NCBI GenBank assembly: GCA_034520665.1
Contig: JAXHNJ010000001.1
Span: 2,579 to 66,578, forward strand
Length of the DNA stretch: 64,000 nucleotides
DNA from: Patescibacteria group bacterium
Lineage (GTDB): Bacteria; Patescibacteriota; Patescibacteriia; JAXHNJ01
Direction of reading: 5' to 3'
Position 1 is the stretch's first letter, and each line of letters starts with the position of its first letter. Both the position numbers and the translations under genes were made by a program. Positions 8,342 through 61,423 of this stretch are shown piece by piece. A model generated the notes under the pieces. It did not search any database, was not told the DNA's origin, and worked only from the letters and a program-made list of their open reading frames with translations.

Positions 8342-9616
8342 TTAATGAAGATAAGTTTGAGCACAACAAATATGATCAGCTGGACAAAAACATTCATTAT
8401 TATCAATACAAGCAAGATCCTCGCCGCCACCTTGGTATTTCATATCATTAAATTCCGGGCTATTATAGGTGTCACAGTCTACCTCAATTTCATTTTTACT
8501 ATCACATTTCCCAGGATCCCGACAATCAATTTCTGTTTTTAAGGCTTTCATACAACAAATAGTGTCAGCTTCTACGTTAGCCCGGGAATCACTGCTACAA
8601 AAAATTTTGCTAGGAGCTATGAGATATCTTGGTTCATTATTATCAGAGTCCCAACATTGGGTACCGCCACGTTCACAATCTATTCTTATATCAGTAACTT
8701 CTTCACAGACTTTTTCAGTCAACTCATCTTGTAAAAGATTAACTTCAAATATTCCATTACTACTAGTACCACGTATTTTTGCAAAACGGCAGTCCATATT
8801 CCCAAAACCCTTATTAATTCTACGGCAGCTTGATTTTATTTCTGGATTTTTAGCAATAACAGCATCCACTTCTTGGCATTTTTCATCATCAGCTTCATCG
8901 CATAAATCCTTGGGGTCAAAACAATTTAAAGGACAATCCTTTTTAGAAGTAACGTCATTGGCGCAAATTTTTGGTTCTCCGGATTTAGTTTCTACAGTCG
9001 GATCACATTCACTACCACAACAATATGATTCACCATAAGCTGCTTTATCCTGGGCACTTTTAGGAATATCATATCTTGTACCACAAGCAAAATATGGGTA
9101 ACTATCTATTGATTCTTTATCCGGGAAATCTTTGCAATAAAAAGTATCTAAAACATTTTTTGATATATTAGACAAGGGCAAAAGTTTAAAGCGGACCAAG
9201 GCTGGGTTAATAGTATTAAGTAAAACAAAAGCCCCTAAGGTTAAAACCAGACCCATTAAAGCGCCGTTTAAAGTGGCTTTGGCTTTTTCTATTTTGGTGG
9301 CATTGCCGCTGGCAGTAATCCACTGGAAACCAGCAAAGACAATCATGACAGCGGCAAAGATACCGGCCGCTCGAGCAAACCATTGGTAAAACTGTATAAT
9401 ATAATCGCCAAAGTTATTGACACAATAATCACAGGTAGAGGTATTACAATCGGGATCACATTTTTTGGTTAAGCCGGGAATTTGTAAATTTACTTTAATC
9501 TGTTTTTCACCCACTTCTGTATCACTTCCTTCTTCCTGAGCTAAAACTTGCCCTGAATAAAATAACAAAACGGAAAAAATTGATAGGATTAAGATTATTT
9601 TAGCTATTTTTTTCAT
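8342..9616 (-). CDS. Cys-rich secreted/membrane protein, paralog B. It has a signal peptide, a conserved two-TM-helix module (possibly TrbC/VirB2-like pilin; uncertain) and a divergent Cys-rich C-terminal domain with about 30 Cys.
   Basis: Signal peptide ending AQEEG. A module FYQWFARAAGIFAAVMIVFAGFQWITASGNATKIEKAKATLNGALMGLVLTLGAFVLL that is near-identical at nucleotide level to paralog A. The C-terminal ~220 aa is dominated by Cys. Confidence 0.6.
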   Translation of the reverse strand: MKKIAKIILILSIFSVLLFYSGQVLAQEEGSDTEVGEKQIKVNLQIPGLTKKCDPDCNTSTCDYCVNNFGDYIIQFYQWFARAAGIFAAVMIVFAGFQWITASGNATKIEKAKATLNGALMGLVLTLGAFVLLNTINPALVRFKLLPLSNISKNVLDTFYCKDFPDKESIDSYPYFACGTRYDIPKSAQDKAAYGESYCCGSECDPTVETKSGEPKICANDVTSKKDCPLNCFDPKDLCDEADDEKCQEVDAVIAKNPEIKSSCRRINKGFGNMDCRFAKIRGTSSNGIFEVNLLQDELTEKVCEEVTDIRIDCERGGTQCWDSDNNEPRYLIAPSKIFCSSDSRANVEADTICCMKALKTEIDCRDPGKCDSKNEIEVDCDTYNSPEFNDMKYQGGGEDLACIDNNECFCPADHICCAQTYLH

Positions 9617-9796
9617 CTTATTATTTAATTAGGAAAAATATTATTTTCATTTTTAACATATAAGTTAACATCCATACAGCAATGTCCATTAGGCACAATA
9701 CTGCAATCAGTAGCACTGGCAGATGCACTTGATCCACAAGGATTTTCTCCACATAAAGCCGATAATGAGTAAAATTCTTTTTAATTTTGGGTTCAT
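9617..9796 (-). pseudogene. Gene remnants: 42-nt copy of the first 14 codons of the 418-aa propeller gene (MNPKLKRILLIIGF) fused to a decayed Cys-rich C-terminal tail (..ENPCGSSASASATDCSIVPNGHCCMDVN..)
   Basis: 9755..9796 is identical to 8145..8186. Downstream, an alternative frame reads a Cys-rich tail resembling paralog C-termini. Confidence 0.5.
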
Positions 9797-9818: not shown

Positions 9819-11045
9819 TTAATTTTTCCACAATAAATTAGTGCGCATCCAACAATTTGAACTACAATTTTCAGTAGTGTTGTCGTAATAGGTACCTGAC
9901 ATACTATTATAACTTTCTCCATTGTCTAAAATATCACTATCACAATCTATCTGTATAATATCTTTTTCTTCCCAAACATCTCCCATACTCGAGTAAGGTT
10001 TTTCTTCTTGGCAAAATATATTTTCTTTAGGAAATAGAGCGCAACACCATTTATCAATATCTCCTACTCTTTCATCATTTGTACAATAATCCCTTGGCTC
10101 ATCTTTATCCCAACAAGCTGTTTCTACTTCTCCAGAATATTCTCCTTTAAAACTACAATTTATTCTTTTCCAATTTCCTTCACAAGGATTTTCTACTATT
10201 TCAACATAAGCACAGGAGTCAAAGGAAAGACCGGGTCTATCCTTACTACATTTATAATCAGTTATTTTATTTTTTTCCAATATGTCGTCAATTTTATAAC
10301 ACTCATCTTTATTAGCTTCCTCACATAATTTTTGTGGGTCAAAACAATTTAAAGGACAATCTTCACCCACCATAGTTACATCATTAGCACAAATTTGTGG
10401 GTTACCCTCCTCATCAACATCACTACAGACACTACCACAACAATAAGATTCACCATAACCCACTTCATCCTGGACACTTTTAGGAATATCATAACTTGTA
10501 CCACAAGCAAAATGTGGGTAATTATCTATTGATTCTTTATCCGGGAAATCTTTGCAATAAAAAGTATCTAAAACATTTTTTGATATATTAGACAAGGGCA
10601 AAAGTTTAAAGCGGACCAAGGCCGGGTTAATAGTATTAAGTAAAACAAAAGCCCCTAAGGTTAAAACCAGACCGATTAAAGCGCCGTTTAAAGTGGCTTT
10701 GGCTTTTTCTATTTTGGTGGCATTGCCGCTGGCAGTAATCCACTGGAAACCAGCAAAGACAATCATGACAGCGGCAAAGATACCGGCCGCTCGAGCAAAC
10801 CATTGGTAAAACTGTATAATATATTCGCCAAAGTTATTGACACAGTAACTACCAGCAAATTTTCCGTTTTCATCACAGGGTTTAGTCAATTTTGGTATTT
10901 TCAAATTTACTGGTATTTCCTTTTCTCCGGTTTCATTACTACCCTCTTCTTGAGCTAAAGTATTATAAAAAGGAAAGAGTAAAAAAAGTAATACTGTTAA
11001 AACTAAAGTTAATTTAGTTAATATTTTTATATTTTTATTTATCAT
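9819..11045 (-). CDS. Cys-rich secreted/membrane protein, paralog A (408-aa model). The ORF track extends it to 11180 because of an indel that fuses the upstream gene's tail.
   Basis: Identical to 13545..14771(+) from the MINKNIK start. It has the same conserved N-terminal module as paralog B and a different Cys-rich C-terminus. Confidence 0.55.
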   Translation of the reverse strand: MINKNIKILTKLTLVLTVLLFLLFPFYNTLAQEEGSNETGEKEIPVNLKIPKLTKPCDENGKFAGSYCVNNFGEYIIQFYQWFARAAGIFAAVMIVFAGFQWITASGNATKIEKAKATLNGALIGLVLTLGAFVLLNTINPALVRFKLLPLSNISKNVLDTFYCKDFPDKESIDNYPHFACGTSYDIPKSVQDEVGYGESYCCGSVCSDVDEEGNPQICANDVTMVGEDCPLNCFDPQKLCEEANKDECYKIDDILEKNKITDYKCSKDRPGLSFDSCAYVEIVENPCEGNWKRINCSFKGEYSGEVETACWDKDEPRDYCTNDERVGDIDKWCCALFPKENIFCQEEKPYSSMGDVWEEKDIIQIDCDSDILDNGESYNSMSGTYYDNTTENCSSNCWMRTNLLWKN

Positions 11046-12240: not shown

Positions 12241-12350
12241 TAACCTAAACCTTGGCTGTCTTTACTAACACTTTATACCTCTGATAGCTTTCGGCGGTAA
12301 GCTATCAGAGGTATAAAGTGTTAGTAAAGACAGCCAAGGTTTAGGTTAAT
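12241..12350. repeat. Symmetry junction of the inverted duplication: arms meet at 12291..12298 with an 8-nt asymmetric spacer (tcggcggt)
   Basis: Perfect reverse-complement symmetry on both sides (..ctgatagctt|tcggcggt|aagctatcag..). Confidence 0.9.
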
Positions 12351-13544: not shown

Positions 13545-14771
13545 ATGATAAATAAAAATATAAAAATATTAACTAAATTAACTTTAGTTTTAACAGTATT
13601 ACTTTTTTTACTCTTTCCTTTTTATAATACTTTAGCTCAAGAAGAGGGTAGTAATGAAACCGGAGAAAAGGAAATACCAGTAAATTTGAAAATACCAAAA
13701 TTGACTAAACCCTGTGATGAAAACGGAAAATTTGCTGGTAGTTACTGTGTCAATAACTTTGGCGAATATATTATACAGTTTTACCAATGGTTTGCTCGAG
13801 CGGCCGGTATCTTTGCCGCTGTCATGATTGTCTTTGCTGGTTTCCAGTGGATTACTGCCAGCGGCAATGCCACCAAAATAGAAAAAGCCAAAGCCACTTT
13901 AAACGGCGCTTTAATCGGTCTGGTTTTAACCTTAGGGGCTTTTGTTTTACTTAATACTATTAACCCGGCCTTGGTCCGCTTTAAACTTTTGCCCTTGTCT
14001 AATATATCAAAAAATGTTTTAGATACTTTTTATTGCAAAGATTTCCCGGATAAAGAATCAATAGATAATTACCCACATTTTGCTTGTGGTACAAGTTATG
14101 ATATTCCTAAAAGTGTCCAGGATGAAGTGGGTTATGGTGAATCTTATTGTTGTGGTAGTGTCTGTAGTGATGTTGATGAGGAGGGTAACCCACAAATTTG
14201 TGCTAATGATGTAACTATGGTGGGTGAAGATTGTCCTTTAAATTGTTTTGACCCACAAAAATTATGTGAGGAAGCTAATAAAGATGAGTGTTATAAAATT
14301 GACGACATATTGGAAAAAAATAAAATAACTGATTATAAATGTAGTAAGGATAGACCCGGTCTTTCCTTTGACTCCTGTGCTTATGTTGAAATAGTAGAAA
14401 ATCCTTGTGAAGGAAATTGGAAAAGAATAAATTGTAGTTTTAAAGGAGAATATTCTGGAGAAGTAGAAACAGCTTGTTGGGATAAAGATGAGCCAAGGGA
14501 TTATTGTACAAATGATGAAAGAGTAGGAGATATTGATAAATGGTGTTGCGCTCTATTTCCTAAAGAAAATATATTTTGCCAAGAAGAAAAACCTTACTCG
14601 AGTATGGGAGATGTTTGGGAAGAAAAAGATATTATACAGATAGATTGTGATAGTGATATTTTAGACAATGGAGAAAGTTATAATAGTATGTCAGGTACCT
14701 ATTACGACAACACTACTGAAAATTGTAGTTCAAATTGTTGGATGCGCACTAATTTATTGTGGAAAAATTAA
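13545..14771 (+). CDS. Cys-rich secreted/membrane protein, paralog A (right-arm copy)
   Basis: Signal peptide, conserved two-helix module and a Cys-rich C-terminal domain. Forms a tandem pair with 14974..16248. Confidence 0.6.
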   Translation: MINKNIKILTKLTLVLTVLLFLLFPFYNTLAQEEGSNETGEKEIPVNLKIPKLTKPCDENGKFAGSYCVNNFGEYIIQFYQWFARAAGIFAAVMIVFAGFQWITASGNATKIEKAKATLNGALIGLVLTLGAFVLLNTINPALVRFKLLPLSNISKNVLDTFYCKDFPDKESIDNYPHFACGTSYDIPKSVQDEVGYGESYCCGSVCSDVDEEGNPQICANDVTMVGEDCPLNCFDPQKLCEEANKDECYKIDDILEKNKITDYKCSKDRPGLSFDSCAYVEIVENPCEGNWKRINCSFKGEYSGEVETACWDKDEPRDYCTNDERVGDIDKWCCALFPKENIFCQEEKPYSSMGDVWEEKDIIQIDCDSDILDNGESYNSMSGTYYDNTTENCSSNCWMRTNLLWKN

Positions 14772-14973: not shown

Positions 14974-16248
14974 ATGAAAAAAATAGCTAAAATAATCTTA
15001 ATCCTATCAATTTTTTCCGTTTTGTTATTTTATTCAGGGCAAGTTTTAGCTCAGGAAGAAGGAAGTGATACAGAAGTGGGTGAAAAACAGATTAAAGTAA
15101 ATTTACAAATTCCCGGCTTAACCAAAAAATGTGATCCCGATTGTAATACCTCTACCTGTGATTATTGTGTCAATAACTTTGGCGATTATATTATACAGTT
15201 TTACCAATGGTTTGCTCGAGCGGCCGGTATCTTTGCCGCTGTCATGATTGTCTTTGCTGGTTTCCAGTGGATTACTGCCAGCGGCAATGCCACCAAAATA
15301 GAAAAAGCCAAAGCCACTTTAAACGGCGCTTTAATGGGTCTGGTTTTAACCTTAGGGGCTTTTGTTTTACTTAATACTATTAACCCAGCCTTGGTCCGCT
15401 TTAAACTTTTGCCCTTGTCTAATATATCAAAAAATGTTTTAGATACTTTTTATTGCAAAGATTTCCCGGATAAAGAATCAATAGATAGTTACCCATATTT
15501 TGCTTGTGGTACAAGATATGATATTCCTAAAAGTGCCCAGGATAAAGCAGCTTATGGTGAATCATATTGTTGTGGTAGTGAATGTGATCCGACTGTAGAA
15601 ACTAAATCCGGAGAACCAAAAATTTGCGCCAATGACGTTACTTCTAAAAAGGATTGTCCTTTAAATTGTTTTGACCCCAAGGATTTATGCGATGAAGCTG
15701 ATGATGAAAAATGCCAAGAAGTGGATGCTGTTATTGCTAAAAATCCAGAAATAAAATCAAGCTGCCGTAGAATTAATAAGGGTTTTGGGAATATGGACTG
15801 CCGTTTTGCAAAAATACGTGGTACTAGTAGTAATGGAATATTTGAAGTTAATCTTTTACAAGATGAGTTGACTGAAAAAGTCTGTGAAGAAGTTACTGAT
15901 ATAAGAATAGATTGTGAACGTGGCGGTACCCAATGTTGGGACTCTGATAATAATGAACCAAGATATCTCATAGCTCCTAGCAAAATTTTTTGTAGCAGTG
16001 ATTCCCGGGCTAACGTAGAAGCTGACACTATTTGTTGTATGAAAGCCTTAAAAACAGAAATTGATTGTCGGGATCCTGGGAAATGTGATAGTAAAAATGA
16101 AATTGAGGTAGACTGTGACACCTATAATAGCCCGGAATTTAATGATATGAAATACCAAGGTGGCGGCGAGGATCTTGCTTGTATTGATAATAATGAATGT
16201 TTTTGTCCAGCTGATCATATTTGTTGTGCTCAAACTTATCTTCATTAA
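14974..16248 (+). CDS. Cys-rich secreted/membrane protein, paralog B (right-arm copy)
   Basis: Identical protein to 8342..9616(-). Confidence 0.6.
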   Translation: MKKIAKIILILSIFSVLLFYSGQVLAQEEGSDTEVGEKQIKVNLQIPGLTKKCDPDCNTSTCDYCVNNFGDYIIQFYQWFARAAGIFAAVMIVFAGFQWITASGNATKIEKAKATLNGALMGLVLTLGAFVLLNTINPALVRFKLLPLSNISKNVLDTFYCKDFPDKESIDSYPYFACGTRYDIPKSAQDKAAYGESYCCGSECDPTVETKSGEPKICANDVTSKKDCPLNCFDPKDLCDEADDEKCQEVDAVIAKNPEIKSSCRRINKGFGNMDCRFAKIRGTSSNGIFEVNLLQDELTEKVCEEVTDIRIDCERGGTQCWDSDNNEPRYLIAPSKIFCSSDSRANVEADTICCMKALKTEIDCRDPGKCDSKNEIEVDCDTYNSPEFNDMKYQGGGEDLACIDNNECFCPADHICCAQTYLH

Positions 16249-26918: not shown

Positions 26919-27113
26919 TTAATAAAAAGTGGGGTTTCTTAGCCCGCTTTCAAGGCTACTACTGATATACCCTCTGTCCATATTTAAAGCACGAGAAATA
27001 TTCCCTTGAGATGTTCCCTTTTTAGTCCGAATTTCCTTTAAATTTTTACCTAATTTTTTAGATAAATCGTCCATAATATCAATGATATTATATAACTTAT
27101 TAAATTTATTCAA
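26919..27113 (-). CDS. XRE-family helix-turn-helix transcriptional regulator (short, possibly truncated)
   Basis: LGKNLKEIRTKKGTSQGNISRALNMDRGYISSLESGLRNP matches the Cro/C1 HTH pattern. Confidence 0.55.
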   Translation of the reverse strand: MNKFNKLYNIIDIMDDLSKKLGKNLKEIRTKKGTSQGNISRALNMDRGYISSSLESGLRNPTFY

Positions 27114-27335
27114 CTCTCATGGCCGGTAAGGTTTTGTAGACAAACTTAATCCTTATGTTCTTTAAATCTTTTGTTTAGGTTAGTTGAATAACCTACATAT
27201 CTTTGCTTAGGATATTTTATACTTTTTAGATAATAAACGTAATATAAGATATTTTTTTTGGCGACCAGAATCATAAAACTTTGTTTCGGTTCTGGTCTGC
27301 CACGAACCGAAAAATTCTTTTCTGGTTCGTGGCGG
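27112..27335. repeat. Direct repeat copy 1 (~225 bp) flanking tRNA-Ser(UGA)
   Basis: Near-identical to 27560..27788. Contains hairpins CCACGAACC/GGTTCGTGG, GACCAGAA/TTCTGGTC and AGGTTA/TAACCT. Confidence 0.85.
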
Positions 27336-27419: not shown

Positions 27420-27559
27420 GGGTTATTTTTATCGTGCGTCTCTCTTTATTTTAAAGTATTTCTTAACATCAATTTTAAGGCTTTTCTTCCCTTGCTTGTT
27501 TTTAGGTATTTTTCTTGTCTTTTTGCATCAGCTTTATTTTTAAAAACCTCATAAAAAAT

Positions 27560-27788
27560 CAACTCTCATGGCCGGTAAGGCTTTGTAGATAAACTTAATC
27601 CTTGATTATGTTCTTTAAATCTTTTGTTTAGGTTAGTTGAATAACCTACATATCTTTGCTTAGGATATTTTATACTTTTTAGATAATAAACGTAATATAA
27701 CATATTTTTTTTGGCGACCAGAATCATAAAACTTTGTTTCGGTTCTGGTCTGCCACGAACCGAAAAATTCTTTTCTGGTTTGTGGCGG
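27560..27788. repeat. Direct repeat copy 2 flanking tRNA-Ser(GCU)
   Basis: Same sequence as 27112..27335 with a 7-nt insertion and two substitutions. Confidence 0.85.
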
Positions 27789-50565: not shown

Positions 50566-50976
50566 ATGAATAATAAAGGCTTAAATTTAAAAGAATTAAT
50601 TATATTCACGGCTTTGCTTTTACTGATTATTGTTTTGGGGATTTTACTTCTTCGCAGTGAAAGAGCCCGAGTTAGGGACGCTAAAAGAGTAGCTGATATG
50701 ACGCGTCTGCGCTATGGTTTTGAAATACTATTTAATGAAGAGAATAGCTACGCTCCGGCCGCTGAAGGATGTGAGCAGGAAAATTCTTTAGCCTCAAAGT
50801 GTAATTTGAGTCAATATTTGCCTAATATTTCTTCTATCAAAGATCCGGGTAAATACAGTTATCAAGTAAAATCAGTACCGGATAAAGAAAATTATGTTAT
50901 AAGTTTTTCTTTGGAAAAAGATTATGATGGTTTAGTAGCTGGCAAACACCTTTTAGACTCAAACGGCATACATTAA
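50566..50976 (+). CDS. Minor pilin-like protein (non-canonical prepilin signal KG|LNLKEL)
   Basis: G at -1 and E at +5 relative to the predicted cleavage site. Hydrophobic helix follows. Confidence 0.55.
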   Translation: MNNKGLNLKELIIFTALLLLIIVLGILLLRSERARVRDAKRVADMTRLRYGFEILFNEENSYAPAAEGCEQENSLASKCNLSQYLPNISSIKDPGKYSYQVKSVPDKENYVISFSLEKDYDGLVAGKHLLDSNGIH

Positions 50977-52321
50977 TGGTGTTTGAAAGTTTGAATTTTT
51001 TCAAGCAGAGATAAATCTTTTGCCTACGCGTTGAGTAGTAGGTGTTTCTTCTTTTTGAATCGCTATTGATTTATCTTTGTTTTTTAATTCATCCTCATTC
51101 CGCGTCGGTGGAGATCCTCATCTCCACTTTAACAATAGTAAGCGGTGTCCACGCGAAAGCGTGAGAATGTATCAATTTTTTTGTTAACATAGCGCCGGAT
51201 AAATCCGGCGCCAGGGTGTTAAATAATATAAAATACAACCCGGCGTAACATCCATATGGCGACATTTTAAAAAGATTACTCCACGAGTATAAATTAATTA
51301 GTATTAAAACAAAGGGTTTTGGGCCGAGCCGCTAGTTTGGTTATTAGGCTGAGTCAATGGTTTTTTATTCCAAACCCACCACCAAAACCTTACTAGCTGC
51401 TATAACCATAACCAATTAGCAAAACATAAATCGCCGGATAAATCCGGCGCCTTCACTTCTCCATCCGCGTAGCTGGAGATTTATCTCCAGGGGTTAGAAT
51501 AATTCGGGTAGAGGTGAGCCCTCGCTCGCCTCTAAAATAAGGCCAAAGCGAGGGCTTTGGCCGACCCTTTTTATTATAAATACTAAAATAATTTTCAAAA
51601 AGCTAAATTCTCTAAAATTATTAATCTGTCTTCATTAAATAATCATTTAAATAATAATTCCTATAACCTGAGTATTTATAATCTTCCGAATTTTTAAAGC
51701 TTTTATAAAATACTCTATTATTTTATCGCGAGAAGAACTGGTCCCCAGACCTGTTCTGGCAATATATTTACTAAGCTCAAGGCCGAGTGACTAGAGCTTC
51801 TCGGTGAGTTAAAGATTTAATAATCTATTTTTTCTCGAGAAGGTTGGATCTCCTGATCCAACCGAATAAGGTGACGCGGATCAGGAGATCCGCGCTTCTC
51901 GGGTAATTTTAAGGGCTTCCTTGGCAGTTTGTTTTATACTAGGTAGAGGCGGGTCATGGCTCGTCTCTAGGCCTGGTCTATTAATATTAAAAATAAATTT
52001 AAACAAAAGCATAATATTTGAAATATTTAATATATTGCGGGAATAGGCATTCCCGGCTAGGCGGTTTTATTTAAAGGCGGAGATAAATCTCCGCCTACGC
52101 GAAAACAAACATCTTTATCTGCGTCGGTGGAGATCTCCATCTCCACATTAATAATAGTAAGTGGTGTCCACGCGAAAGCGTGAGAATGTATCAATTTTTT
52201 TGTTAACATAGCGCCGGATAAATTCGGCGCCTTCACCTCTTCATCCGCGTAGCTGGAGATTTATCTCCAGATTCATCTTCGGTTTAAATAAGGTCTTTTT
52301 TATGGTATAATATAATAAAGT
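50977..52321. repeat. 1.35-kb noncoding region dense in GC-rich hairpin repeats (GGAGAT...ATCTCC cores, GCGCCGGAT-AAA-TCCGGCGC, CACGC-GAAA-GCGTG)
   Basis: Composite units at ~51001..51217, 51425..51490 and 52076..52270 are near-identical. Additional hairpins at 51497..51560, 51843..51894, 51930..51962 and 52037..52056. No ORF of 60 aa or more. Confidence 0.8.
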
Positions 52322-53092
52322 ATGAGCATTATTTATTATTTATTAATCTTTATTTTTGGCCTCATTGGTGGCAGTTTTTTAAATGCGGTTATTTACCGTC
52401 TTCATGCGAAAAAGTCATTTTTAAAGGGACGTTCATTTTGCCCTCATTGCCAACATCAGCTAAAAACCGCTGATTTAATACCACTTTTCAGCTTTATTTT
52501 TTTAAAAGGTCAATGCCGCTATTGCCAAAAAAAAATATCCTGGCAGTATCCTCTGGTGGAATTAGCAACCGCTTTGTGTTTTTGTCTTTTATTTTTTCGT
52601 TTTAACTGGTCTTTAGAATTTATTTTTTATCTGGTTATTACTCTTTTTCTGATTATTATTTTTGTTTATGACTGGCGCTATCATCTTATTTTAGATAAGG
52701 TCAGTATAACGGCTGTGATTTTGGCTTTAATTTTTAGTTTAATATTAGGCTTATCAATTTATAGCCTTTTATTAGGCGCTTTGATTGGTGGCGGTTTTTT
52801 CTTTTTGCAGTATTTAATATCAAAAGGTAAATGGATTGGCGGCGGTGATATTCGTTTGGGAGTTTTAATGGGTTTTATACTGGGCTGGCAAAAAATTTTA
52901 GTAGCGCTGTTTTTAGCTTATTTTGTTGGCGCTGTATTTGCCATATTTTTAATAATATTAAAGAATAAGAAATTAAAAAGTCATCTGCCTTTTGGCACTT
53001 TTTTAACTGCCGGAACTTTTGTGGCTCTGCTTTGGGGCCAAGTAATTATAGACTGGTATTTATCGGGGAGTTTAGTCAATTGGTTTTATTAA
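52322..53092 (+). CDS. pilD: Prepilin peptidase PilD (A24 family)
   Basis: N-terminal zinc-binding CPHC...CRYC, multiple TM helices, catalytic Asp-containing segments. Confidence 0.85.
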
Positions 53093-60648: not shown

Positions 60649-60879
60649 ATTGAATATAAATTTGACCAGTTAAATATTATTTGATAGCATAAATATCAAT
60701 ATGTGGATAAATAGCAAAAAAAATATTTTAAATATTATTATCCGACCCGGCTTGGTATAGTATTGATATAATAGAATATTAAGATTATCCCGAGCCTTAT
60801 AAAAAGGGTCGGTTTTTTTGTTATTACTGGTTCTTTTAAAAAAATGGAAAGCTTTGCTTTCCAAAGAGAAAGGAGAAAA

Positions 60880-61041
60880 ATGAAAACTTGTCCAAAGTGT
60901 CAGTCTTTTTTACAGCCAACAGTGGTTGAAAAAGACGGAAAAAAAGAGATAATTAATGCTTGTTTGCGATGTCATCCGGAGTTATTCAATTTACCTAAAG
61001 GCTTAAAGGAGGTTTATCATGGCCCAAGACAAGAATGTTGA
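60880..61041 (+). CDS. Small zinc-ribbon protein (CPKC...CLRCH)
   Basis: RBS aaaggag 8 nt upstream of the internal ATG. Two Cys pairs. Low confidence. Confidence 0.3.
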   Translation: MKTCPKCQSFLQPTVVEKDGKKEIINACLRCHPELFNLPKGLKEVYHGPRQEC

Positions 61042-61157
61042 AACTAAGGAAGAGATGGAAGAAAATTCAAAGAAAAAAAGAGAAGAGACACCTAAAAAAG
61101 AGTTAACAGCTGAGGAATTCTTTAGTACTTTGGAGGTTTAACTCTCCTTTTTCTACT

Positions 61158-61200
61158 AAAGCCGCCGGTTACTAGAACTAGGCGGCTTTTTTTCTTTTTT
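61158..61200 (+). terminator. Rho-independent terminator
   Basis: GCCGCC-ggttactagaact-aGGCGGC followed by TTTTTTTCTTTTTT. Confidence 0.8.
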
Positions 61201-61295
61201 ATAAACCTAAAGGTTTATATCAAGCTATGCGGCTTCATAAAACTTATTTTGCGCAGAAGGCATTTTTTTAAATTTAAATATCTTATTAGCTGAAT

Positions 61296-61392
61296 AAGCT
61301 CAGCGCCCCGCCAGCCGTTTTTTTGGGGAAATAACTTCAGTAGACCGCCAGCCGTTTTTTTGGGGAAATAACTTCAGCACACCGCCAGTGGC
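61296..61392. repeat. Tandem ~38-bp direct repeat (2.3 copies) in a convergent intergenic region
   Basis: ccgccagccgtttttttggggaaataacttcag occurs twice, plus a partial third copy. Confidence 0.8.
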
Positions 61393-61423
61393 CTTAGACT
61401 TAAATGTTATTAGCTTAAGCTAA

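Follow-up and report, generated by a model that had tools for sequence, protein, structure and literature searches.

A GTAG-tagged mosaic of hairpin modules, probably a REP/BIME-like repeat cluster, upstream of pilD in a Patescibacteria genome

Patescibacteria genomes are tiny and streamlined, so persistent selfish or domesticated repeats are unexpected in them. What, then, occupies the 1345 bp that separate a pilin-like open reading frame (ORF) from the prepilin peptidase gene pilD in one Patescibacteria group bacterium (GCA_034520665.1, contig JAXHNJ010000001.1)? We analyzed the 64,000-nt stretch of this contig that contains the locus (contig positions 2,579–66,578, hereafter the window, whose own numbering is used throughout). 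We assign a probability of roughly 70% to the reading that the gap at 50977–52321, here called the island, is a cluster of repetitive extragenic palindromes (REPs) and companion hairpin modules that resembles bacterial interspersed mosaic elements (BIMEs) and belongs to a dispersed, non-coding, mosaic repeat family of Patescibacteria.

A first-pass annotation, made from the sequence alone, had described this gap as an ORF-free island built of GC-rich palindromes with a recurring GGAGAT/ATCTCC core, and our analysis agrees on both points. The gap contains no ORF of at least 60 aa and is the longest stretch of the window lacking ORFs of at least 90 aa, the runner-up measuring 775 bp. The window has 15 perfect GC-rich hairpins with stems of at least 7 bp, and 11 of them fall in the island, a density of 8.2 per kb compared with 0.064 per kb elsewhere in the window (∼128-fold). 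The repeated motifs recur far beyond chance (0.03 and 0.00 chance matches expected in the motif searches), and the remaining hairpins that the annotation had listed fold as it described.

The hairpins by which we assign the family, here called heads, have a common core consisting of the tag CGCGTAG, an 8-bp stem (GC, CT or GT followed by GGAGAT) and a TT or TC loop. A published rule set defines REPs by a GTAG or GTGG located 0–2 nt 5′ of a hairpin with a fully paired stem of 7–20 bp, a loop of 2–5 nt and at least three G/C among the four basal pairs (Quentin et al. 2018, PMC6006769). Coded and run on the 64-kb window, with dinucleotide shuffles as background, these rules returned three matches, all in the island, against 0.05 expected per shuffle. 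GTAG stands at offset 0 in all three intact heads of the window and in eight heads from other loci, and shows little or no variation across 13 aligned heads; head stems are 8 bp long, loops measure 2 nt, and the basal positions read GCGG, CTGG or GTGG. GTAG REPs are described as having a TY loop consensus and GTMG variants of the tag (Di Nocera et al. 2013, PMC3733652). The heads, with TT or TC in the loop, match this consensus, and the GTCG tag of a further REP-like hairpin in the island, H2, matches the GTMG degeneration. In the terms of the same study, the head pair of the window counts as a tail-tail heterodimer: its tags face inward and its stems differ.

Across the 13 heads, which come from seven loci, the 8-bp stem is paired in 100% of the alignment cells, three of its eight pairs show compensatory changes, and the covariation score is 0.359, compared with 0.163 in shuffles. 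The hairpin of the heads is therefore under selection. The sole non-Watson–Crick pairs are two G·T wobbles, both on the GTAG strand. They occur in the two heads of one dimer (locus L019; L numbers denote loci outside the window), where they fall on opposite DNA strands, each on the GTAG strand of its own head, a pattern more consistent with heads that fold individually as single-stranded DNA than with one RNA transcript. By the extragenic-location test, all heads lie between ORFs, usually just 3′ of one, and the spacers of inverted dimers measure ∼20–144 nt, inside the 150 nt allowed between the REPs of a BIME.

The features of the island and its two flanking genes are as follows, in 5′ to 3′ order; copy A and copy B are the two copies of a composite unit.

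50566–50976, plus strand: pilin-like ORF of 136 aa, the last gene 5′ of the island.
51005–51038, minus strand: left head, variant or degenerate, with CGCGTAG and a weak stem GCAAAAGATTTATCTCTGC followed by a TTGAGTAG tail; poor fold (z = 0.25).
51101–51127, plus strand: H2 of copy A, a REP-like head tagged GTCG (CGCGTCG), whose 8-bp stem GTGGAGAT/ATCTCCAC closes a loop of 4 nt.
51149–51163, plus strand: H3 of copy A, a CCACGCGAAAGCGTG hairpin with two further occurrences in L040.
51192–51212, plus strand: H4 copy A1, a GCGCCGGATAAATCCGGCGCC hairpin.
51213–51430, plus strand: family block with a degenerate H5 (∼51247–51270) and M6 (51322–51356), the 'insert' of the first-pass annotation.
51431–51451, plus strand: H4 copy A2, TCGCCGGATAAATCCGGCGCC.
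51466–51500, plus strand: C-type REP head of copy A, with CGCGTAG, CTGGAGAT-TT-ATCTCCAG and the conserved tail GGGTTAGAAT.
51509–51562, plus strand: GGTAGAGG-type hairpin (51509–51534), then a terminator-like hairpin (51541–51562) with a T-run.
51834–51903, plus strand: three-way module, an outer stem CTCGAGAAG/CTTCTCGGG around hairpins at 51842–51863 and 51876–51893.
51941–51974, plus strand: second GGTAGAGG-type hairpin.
52038–52055, plus strand: CGGGAATAGGCATTCCCG hairpin.
52076–52101, minus strand: G-type REP head of copy B, with CGCGTAG and GCGGAGAT-TT-ATCTCCGC; left arm of a 23-nt terminal inverted repeat.
52121–52146, plus strand: H2 of copy B, with a GCGTCG tag and GTGGAGAT-CTCC-ATCTCCAC.
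52168–52182, plus strand: H3 of copy B.
52211–52231, plus strand: H4 of copy B, GCGCCGGATAAATTCGGCGCC, with one stem mismatch.
52246–52270, plus strand: C-type REP head of copy B; right arm of the terminal inverted repeat.
52283–52311, plus strand: promoter-like site of pilD, with an extended −10 TGGTATAAT.
52322–53092, plus strand: pilD, prepilin peptidase, with domains A24_N_bact and Peptidase_A24.

The first-pass annotation had proposed that the hairpin be sought beyond the window, and heads and modules do recur in unrelated intergenic regions of other genomes. Exact-motif scans with GTAGNNGGAGATTTATCTCC covered 185,579 species genomes (one per species), JGI metagenomes and viral collections. 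Heads with the full CGCGTAG tag were found at L012, L018, L019, L032 and L040, and a head with a variant tag at L031. L018 and L019 are two contigs of one Patescibacteria metagenome-assembled genome (MAG; JAHIVO01), and heads also occur on three contigs of the metagenome Ga0102934. The gene contexts of the head-bearing loci differ, and tblastx of their contigs against the window revealed no shared genes. L012, L019, L032 and L040 carry a dimer of a G-type and a C-type head, 73–144 nt long, while L018 and L031 carry single heads.

Modules, too, recur at some of these loci in differing order. L040 has an intergenic island of 590 bp, surrounded by other genes and lying on the other strand. In a new order, it shares with the window H2-H3, H3 plus tail, H5, the left variant head together with the spacer that follows it, and the C-type head with the GGTTAGAAT tail. 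The tail GGGTTAGAAT of the C-type head is common to the window and L040, and the left variant head belongs to the same variant module as a head at L040 position 556 (minus strand), with a partial match to positions 9780–9805 of L003. The H4-H5 pair is common to the window, L003 and L031, and M6 and the three-way module to the window and L003 only; the architecture of the three-way module recurs at L003 9406–9480 with compensatory changes. Across genomes, heads are conserved as exact matches of 25–27 nt, and modules of 80–110 nt at 72–77% identity.

Two further loci bear on the host range of such sequences. L012 (contig CAZJUO010000066.1, 7 kb) is binned as 'uncultured Gammaproteobacteria', and its dimer has a 27-nt exact match to the C-type head of the window; the contig has been misbinned, or else the family extends across phyla. 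L021, from a Pseudomonadota MAG, contains at 2901–2945 an unrelated GTAG-tagged REP doublet, GTAGTAGGAGATTTATCTCCTAC with an inverted partner (GGGGATAAATCCCC stem, CTAC tag on this strand), which shares the GGAGAT-TT-ATCTCC core through convergence or chance.

How is the island itself put together? The intact composite unit, copy B (∼52076–52270, 195 nt), ends in a 23-nt terminal inverted repeat with 91% complementarity. Within it, the G-type head and H2 form a dimer with tags inward and ∼19 nt between the tags. The pair of different heads at the two ends, also inverted with tags inward, could fold as one long hairpin, with H2, H3 and H4 in the spacer. Two direct repeats link copy A to copy B (51099–51212 with 52118–52231, 94%; 51432–51490 with 52212–52270, 95%), in two copies each and at spacings of 1019 and 780 nt. 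The first-pass annotation had reported an intact composite unit here and a split copy upstream. The intact unit is as described, but the left third of copy A (51001–51098) is only weakly similar to copy B and constitutes a distinct variant module that is present in L040 too. A short-read assembly of the same sample breaks at both edges of the island, 61 nt inside it at one edge and, at the other, 66 nt short of pilD.

The same annotation had explained the split of copy A by a ∼205-bp insertion flanked by a 21-bp target-site duplication. The H4 hairpin GCGCCGGATAAATCCGGCGCC does occur twice in copy A (51192–51212 and 51431–51451), bracketing ∼218 bp, and these form a discrete block; the target-site duplication is doubtful, as the block's own 5′ end is H4 followed by H5. 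The adjacency of H4 and H5, which make up the first 80 nt of the block, is kept in L003, L031 and L040, and one H4 copy therefore belongs to the block itself; in L003, the corresponding block lies upstream of the left-variant head and not within a unit. Recombination between two modules that both carry H4, or nesting of such modules, thus explains the duplication of H4 better than a staggered cut does. Alternatively, unit B may derive from a copy-A-like unit by deletion between two H4 copies. We infer that the cluster grew by local segmental duplication, which would account for two composite units 92–95% identical and 1 kb apart, and also by recombination or nesting among modules with hairpins in common, the 218-bp block between the H4 copies being an example.

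Attempts to find a coding or imported origin for the island were negative. A decayed gene in its AT-rich middle was considered and rejected, as tblastx matched repeat modules only. Small ORFs over the units were likewise rejected as coding, since differences between the two copies are mostly non-synonymous and the ORFs are not conserved as coding sequence; a 59-aa minus-strand ORF over unit B, used as bait for copies among predicted proteins, yielded no candidates. A blastn search for a phage or plasmid origin of the island gave no match.

The gap between the pilin-like ORF and pilD is 62 bp in L004–L006 (PilD 72% identical), 99 bp in L053 (66%) and 176 bp in L007 (65%), whereas it reaches 657 bp in L003, the closest relative (84%), and 1345 bp in the window. 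The L003 island consists of decayed, rearranged versions of the window modules. Gaps of 62–176 bp in more distant relatives and a decayed island in the closest one mark the island as a lineage-specific expansion. The first-pass annotation had proposed comparing relatives to see whether it is an insertion, and relative to them it is an insertion or expansion.

The position of the island with respect to transcription may explain why it is tolerated. An extended −10 motif (TGGTATAAT or TGTTATAAT) lies just 5′ of pilD in all four lineages inspected (window, L003, L004 and L007) and is the best promoter-like site of the region. This conserved site next to pilD puts the island between the pilin-like gene and pilD's own promoter. 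In practical terms, pilD has a putative promoter to itself, and the island probably either is neutral or works as a terminator. Insertion 3′ of the pilin-like gene and 5′ of the pilD promoter would be tolerated, and the hairpins, as putative terminators or protectors of the 3′ mRNA end, may uncouple pilin and pilD expression.

By analogy with REPs and their REP-associated tyrosine transposases (RAYTs), and with IS200/IS605 insertion sequences, the heads would most likely spread by folding while their DNA is single-stranded; recognition of the hairpin and its 5′ GTAG would fall to a trans-acting Y1 HUH tyrosine transposase, which would cut and rejoin it, leaving no target-site duplication. The mobilizing enzyme is thus a candidate drawn from known systems: TnpA_REP of Escherichia coli requires a 5′ GTAG and the REP hairpin, cleaves single-stranded DNA at CT and can transfer strands (PMC3479197). 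L004, which has the same gene order as the window, encodes a 184-aa protein that scores 112.5 bits against the NCBIfam model REP_Tyr_transpos (cut-off 80); its sole PDB match is TnpA_REP (4ER8), with the HUH and YxxxNP motifs aligned. Homologues of this RAYT-type protein are common in Patescibacteria.

Several observations weigh against assigning the island to a dispersed REP/BIME-like family. The exact-motif scans gave mostly chance matches inside genes and ∼8 true family members, and within the 64-kb window the family is confined to the island. The argument from the strand of the wobbles has n = 2 G·T pairs. No Y1 transposase was found in the window or at any head-bearing locus by tblastn with a relative's RAYT. 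Moreover, the RAYT genes of L004, L044, L047, L049 and L050 are flanked by another hairpin family (ATAAACCTTTAGGTTTAT and GTAAGRC-TAAA-GYCTTAC or variants), those of L048 and L052 have ATAAA-type upstream hairpins only, and GGAGAT heads stand at RAYT genes in none of the seven neighborhoods inspected. The heads may use a RAYT elsewhere in the genome or another enzyme, or may no longer be mobile. With lower probability, they are an orphan GTAG-tagged REP/BIME family of Patescibacteria, distinct from the RAYT-flanking hairpins. The heads and modules would then depend on another enzyme or on exchange among genomes of the candidate phyla radiation (CPR), and the composite units could serve the host, for instance by insulating the pilin genes from pilD as RNA or DNA structures.

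RAYT neighborhoods yielded observations of their own. In the window, the NDK–TruB intergenic region (60649–61423) is without a RAYT gene, which L004 has at this position; a relic of the RAYT-upstream hairpin (ATAAACCTAAAGGTTTAT) is kept at 61201–61218, which suggests that the RAYT was lost or replaced at this site. The same region contains a 65-aa Cys-rich small ORF (60844–61041) and a 37-bp tandem repeat of 2.6 copies (61293–61388). In several Patescibacteria relatives, RAYT-like genes lie within long arrays of 5–13 consecutive PEP-utilizers-domain paralogues (L044 1–12859, L047 325–17340 and L049 4755–10892), and L050 has tandem RAYT genes, each with flanking GTAAGRC-TAAA-GYCTTAC hairpins.

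Could the 195-nt composite unit, with its two copies, instead encode a structured non-coding RNA or act as a cis-regulatory RNA on pilD? We regard this as unlikely. The predicted fold of unit B is indeed very stable, H3 has a GAAA tetraloop on the coding strand, stems show compensatory changes, and the three-way module (51834–51903) keeps its architecture in L003 despite changed stems. Yet the two strands fold equally well (z = −7.9 and −8.0), and the dimer's heads lie on opposite strands, with the L019 wobbles on the GTAG strand of each head. Rfam covariance models found nothing in the gap at the gathering score (best sub-threshold match isrK, 25 bits where 50 are needed), and an Rfam scan of seven related loci, by gathering score and by E-value, gave no credible match. 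From locus to locus the modules change order instead of staying together as one architecture, and in L040 they run the opposite way with respect to the neighboring genes; the pilD promoter lies downstream of the units, and the promoter-like sites beside them are weak consensus matches, no more frequent than in shuffles. On these grounds we do not retain the first-pass suggestion of several copies of a small structured RNA.

Slightly less probable still is that the composite unit is a miniature inverted-repeat transposable element (MITE), a deletion derivative of a DDE-type insertion sequence moved by cut-and-paste through 23-bp terminal inverted repeats. The 91% complementarity of its ends, the typical size of 73–194 nt and the non-coding nature of the elements would suit a MITE, but the 'terminal repeats' are self-folding GTAG-tagged hairpins that differ from each other, heads also occur singly (L018 and L031), and a transposase gene with matching ends was not found. 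No target-site duplication of at least 3 bp was detected at any of the five dimers, with a 3-nt boundary tolerance. The first-pass label 'REP/MITE-like family' is therefore upheld in its first half, by the GTAG tag, 8-bp stem, 2-nt loop, inverted dimers and occurrence in other genomes, and loses its second.

A purely local product of slippage or duplication, without a dispersed family, is very improbable. It would account for the confinement of the motifs to the island within the window and for two units that are direct repeats 1 kb apart with 92–95% identity, but it is excluded by the other head-bearing loci: heads and modules stand in unrelated contexts on at least six other contigs, two of them from one Patescibacteria MAG. 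Readings of the island as a CRISPR array, or as an integration site derived from a tRNA or tmRNA, which its repeated GC-rich palindromes and a …CCCACCA string at 51376–51382 might suggest, are scarcely credible, given that the repeats are neither evenly spaced nor in tandem (TRF found no tandem array in the island), that ARAGORN predicted no tRNA or tmRNA in the gap of which the 'tRNA-like 3′ end' of the first-pass annotation (CCAAACCCACCA) could be part, and that no integrase or cas gene adjoins the island.

As a REP/BIME-like mosaic, the family invites comparison with several known kinds of element. Pneumococcal BOX and enterobacterial ERIC/IRU elements, like this family, consist of short modules in variable order and number, are intergenic and fold stably; they are not known to carry a GTAG tag or to have any sequence relation to it. 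The ends of IS200/IS605 elements and their PATE derivatives share subterminal hairpins with a 5′ guide tetranucleotide, recognition of single-stranded DNA by a Y1 HUH transposase and the lack of a target-site duplication. Here, however, no tnpA or tnpB lies in or beside the units, and the ends are near-symmetrical REP heads instead of distinct left and right ends with guide-defined cleavage sites.

The closest likeness is to the GTAG REPs and BIMEs of Enterobacteria, Pseudomonas and Stenotrophomonas (PMC3733652, PMC3479197), which also have an unpaired 5′ GTAG, a GC-rich stem of 6–13 bp and a 2–3-nt TY loop. They form inverted heterodimers with spacers of 20–100 bp or more in which stem-loops are possible, assemble into clusters of monomers, dimers and flanking DNA, lie extragenically 3′ of ORFs and show no target-site duplication. 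The present family differs in its Patescibacteria host, in a longer conserved tag (CGCGTAG), in a copy number that looks low in the 64 kb seen and in that no REPtron, a RAYT gene with at least one such head within ∼1 kb, was found. The inverted REP pairs known as REPINs, which go with single-copy RAYTs (Bertels and Rainey 2011, PMC3116915, PMC3337134), have a counterpart in the short-spacer hairpins of ∼73–86 nt in L012, L019 and L032, and RAYT-type genes exist in the lineage. The spacer of the window dimer, on the other hand, is 144 nt long and loaded with extra hairpins, and the lineage's RAYT homologues are flanked by the other hairpin family, in tandem in L050.

Full-text searches of a literature collection found no relevant report joining REP, RAYT, REPIN or MITE with Patescibacteria, CPR or Parcubacteria. 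To our knowledge, REPs, BIMEs and REPINs have been characterized almost wholly in Proteobacteria and a few other phyla. The repeats described here add a new family and a new phylum to a well-known kind of element, and their mechanism would stand out only if the heads turned out to be genuine orphans. If bona fide, this mosaic GTAG-tagged family would extend the range of the element type to this phylum and would explain why short-read assemblies break at such sites in these genomes, which would be useful for annotation. It also raises the question of whether one enzyme serves both the heads and the RAYT-flanking hairpins, or whether the heads are orphaned.

The window has a GC content of ∼33%, and the homologues of its PilD are labeled Patescibacteria or Kerfeldbacteria in their source records. 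Gene order around the island runs, 5′ to 3′, from a pilB-like ATPase gene through a response regulator, a pilT-like ATPase, pilC, an N_methyl pilin (179 aa) and the 136-aa pilin-like ORF to the 1345-bp gap, pilD and further pseudopilins. The pilin-like ORF has no Pfam match; its class III signal is degenerate (KGLNLKE, Glu at +5), and orthologues of 136–137 aa stand before pilD in all relatives.

Outside this locus, positions 1–24587 of the window form a near-perfect palindrome that matches its own reverse complement at 99.93%, with its center near 12294 and every gene mirrored (e.g. tRNA-Arg(gcg) at 2559 and 21956). It has the look of a fold-back error of the assembly, not of a biological feature. 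The palindromic part includes a 545-bp direct repeat of ∼90% identity (8888–9428 and 10311–10848), with mirror copies at 13742–14279 and 15162–15702. A further direct repeat, of 230 bp and 96.5% identity (27110–27335 and 27559–27788), has its copies directly 3′ of two different tRNA-Ser genes on the minus strand (anticodons tga and gct).

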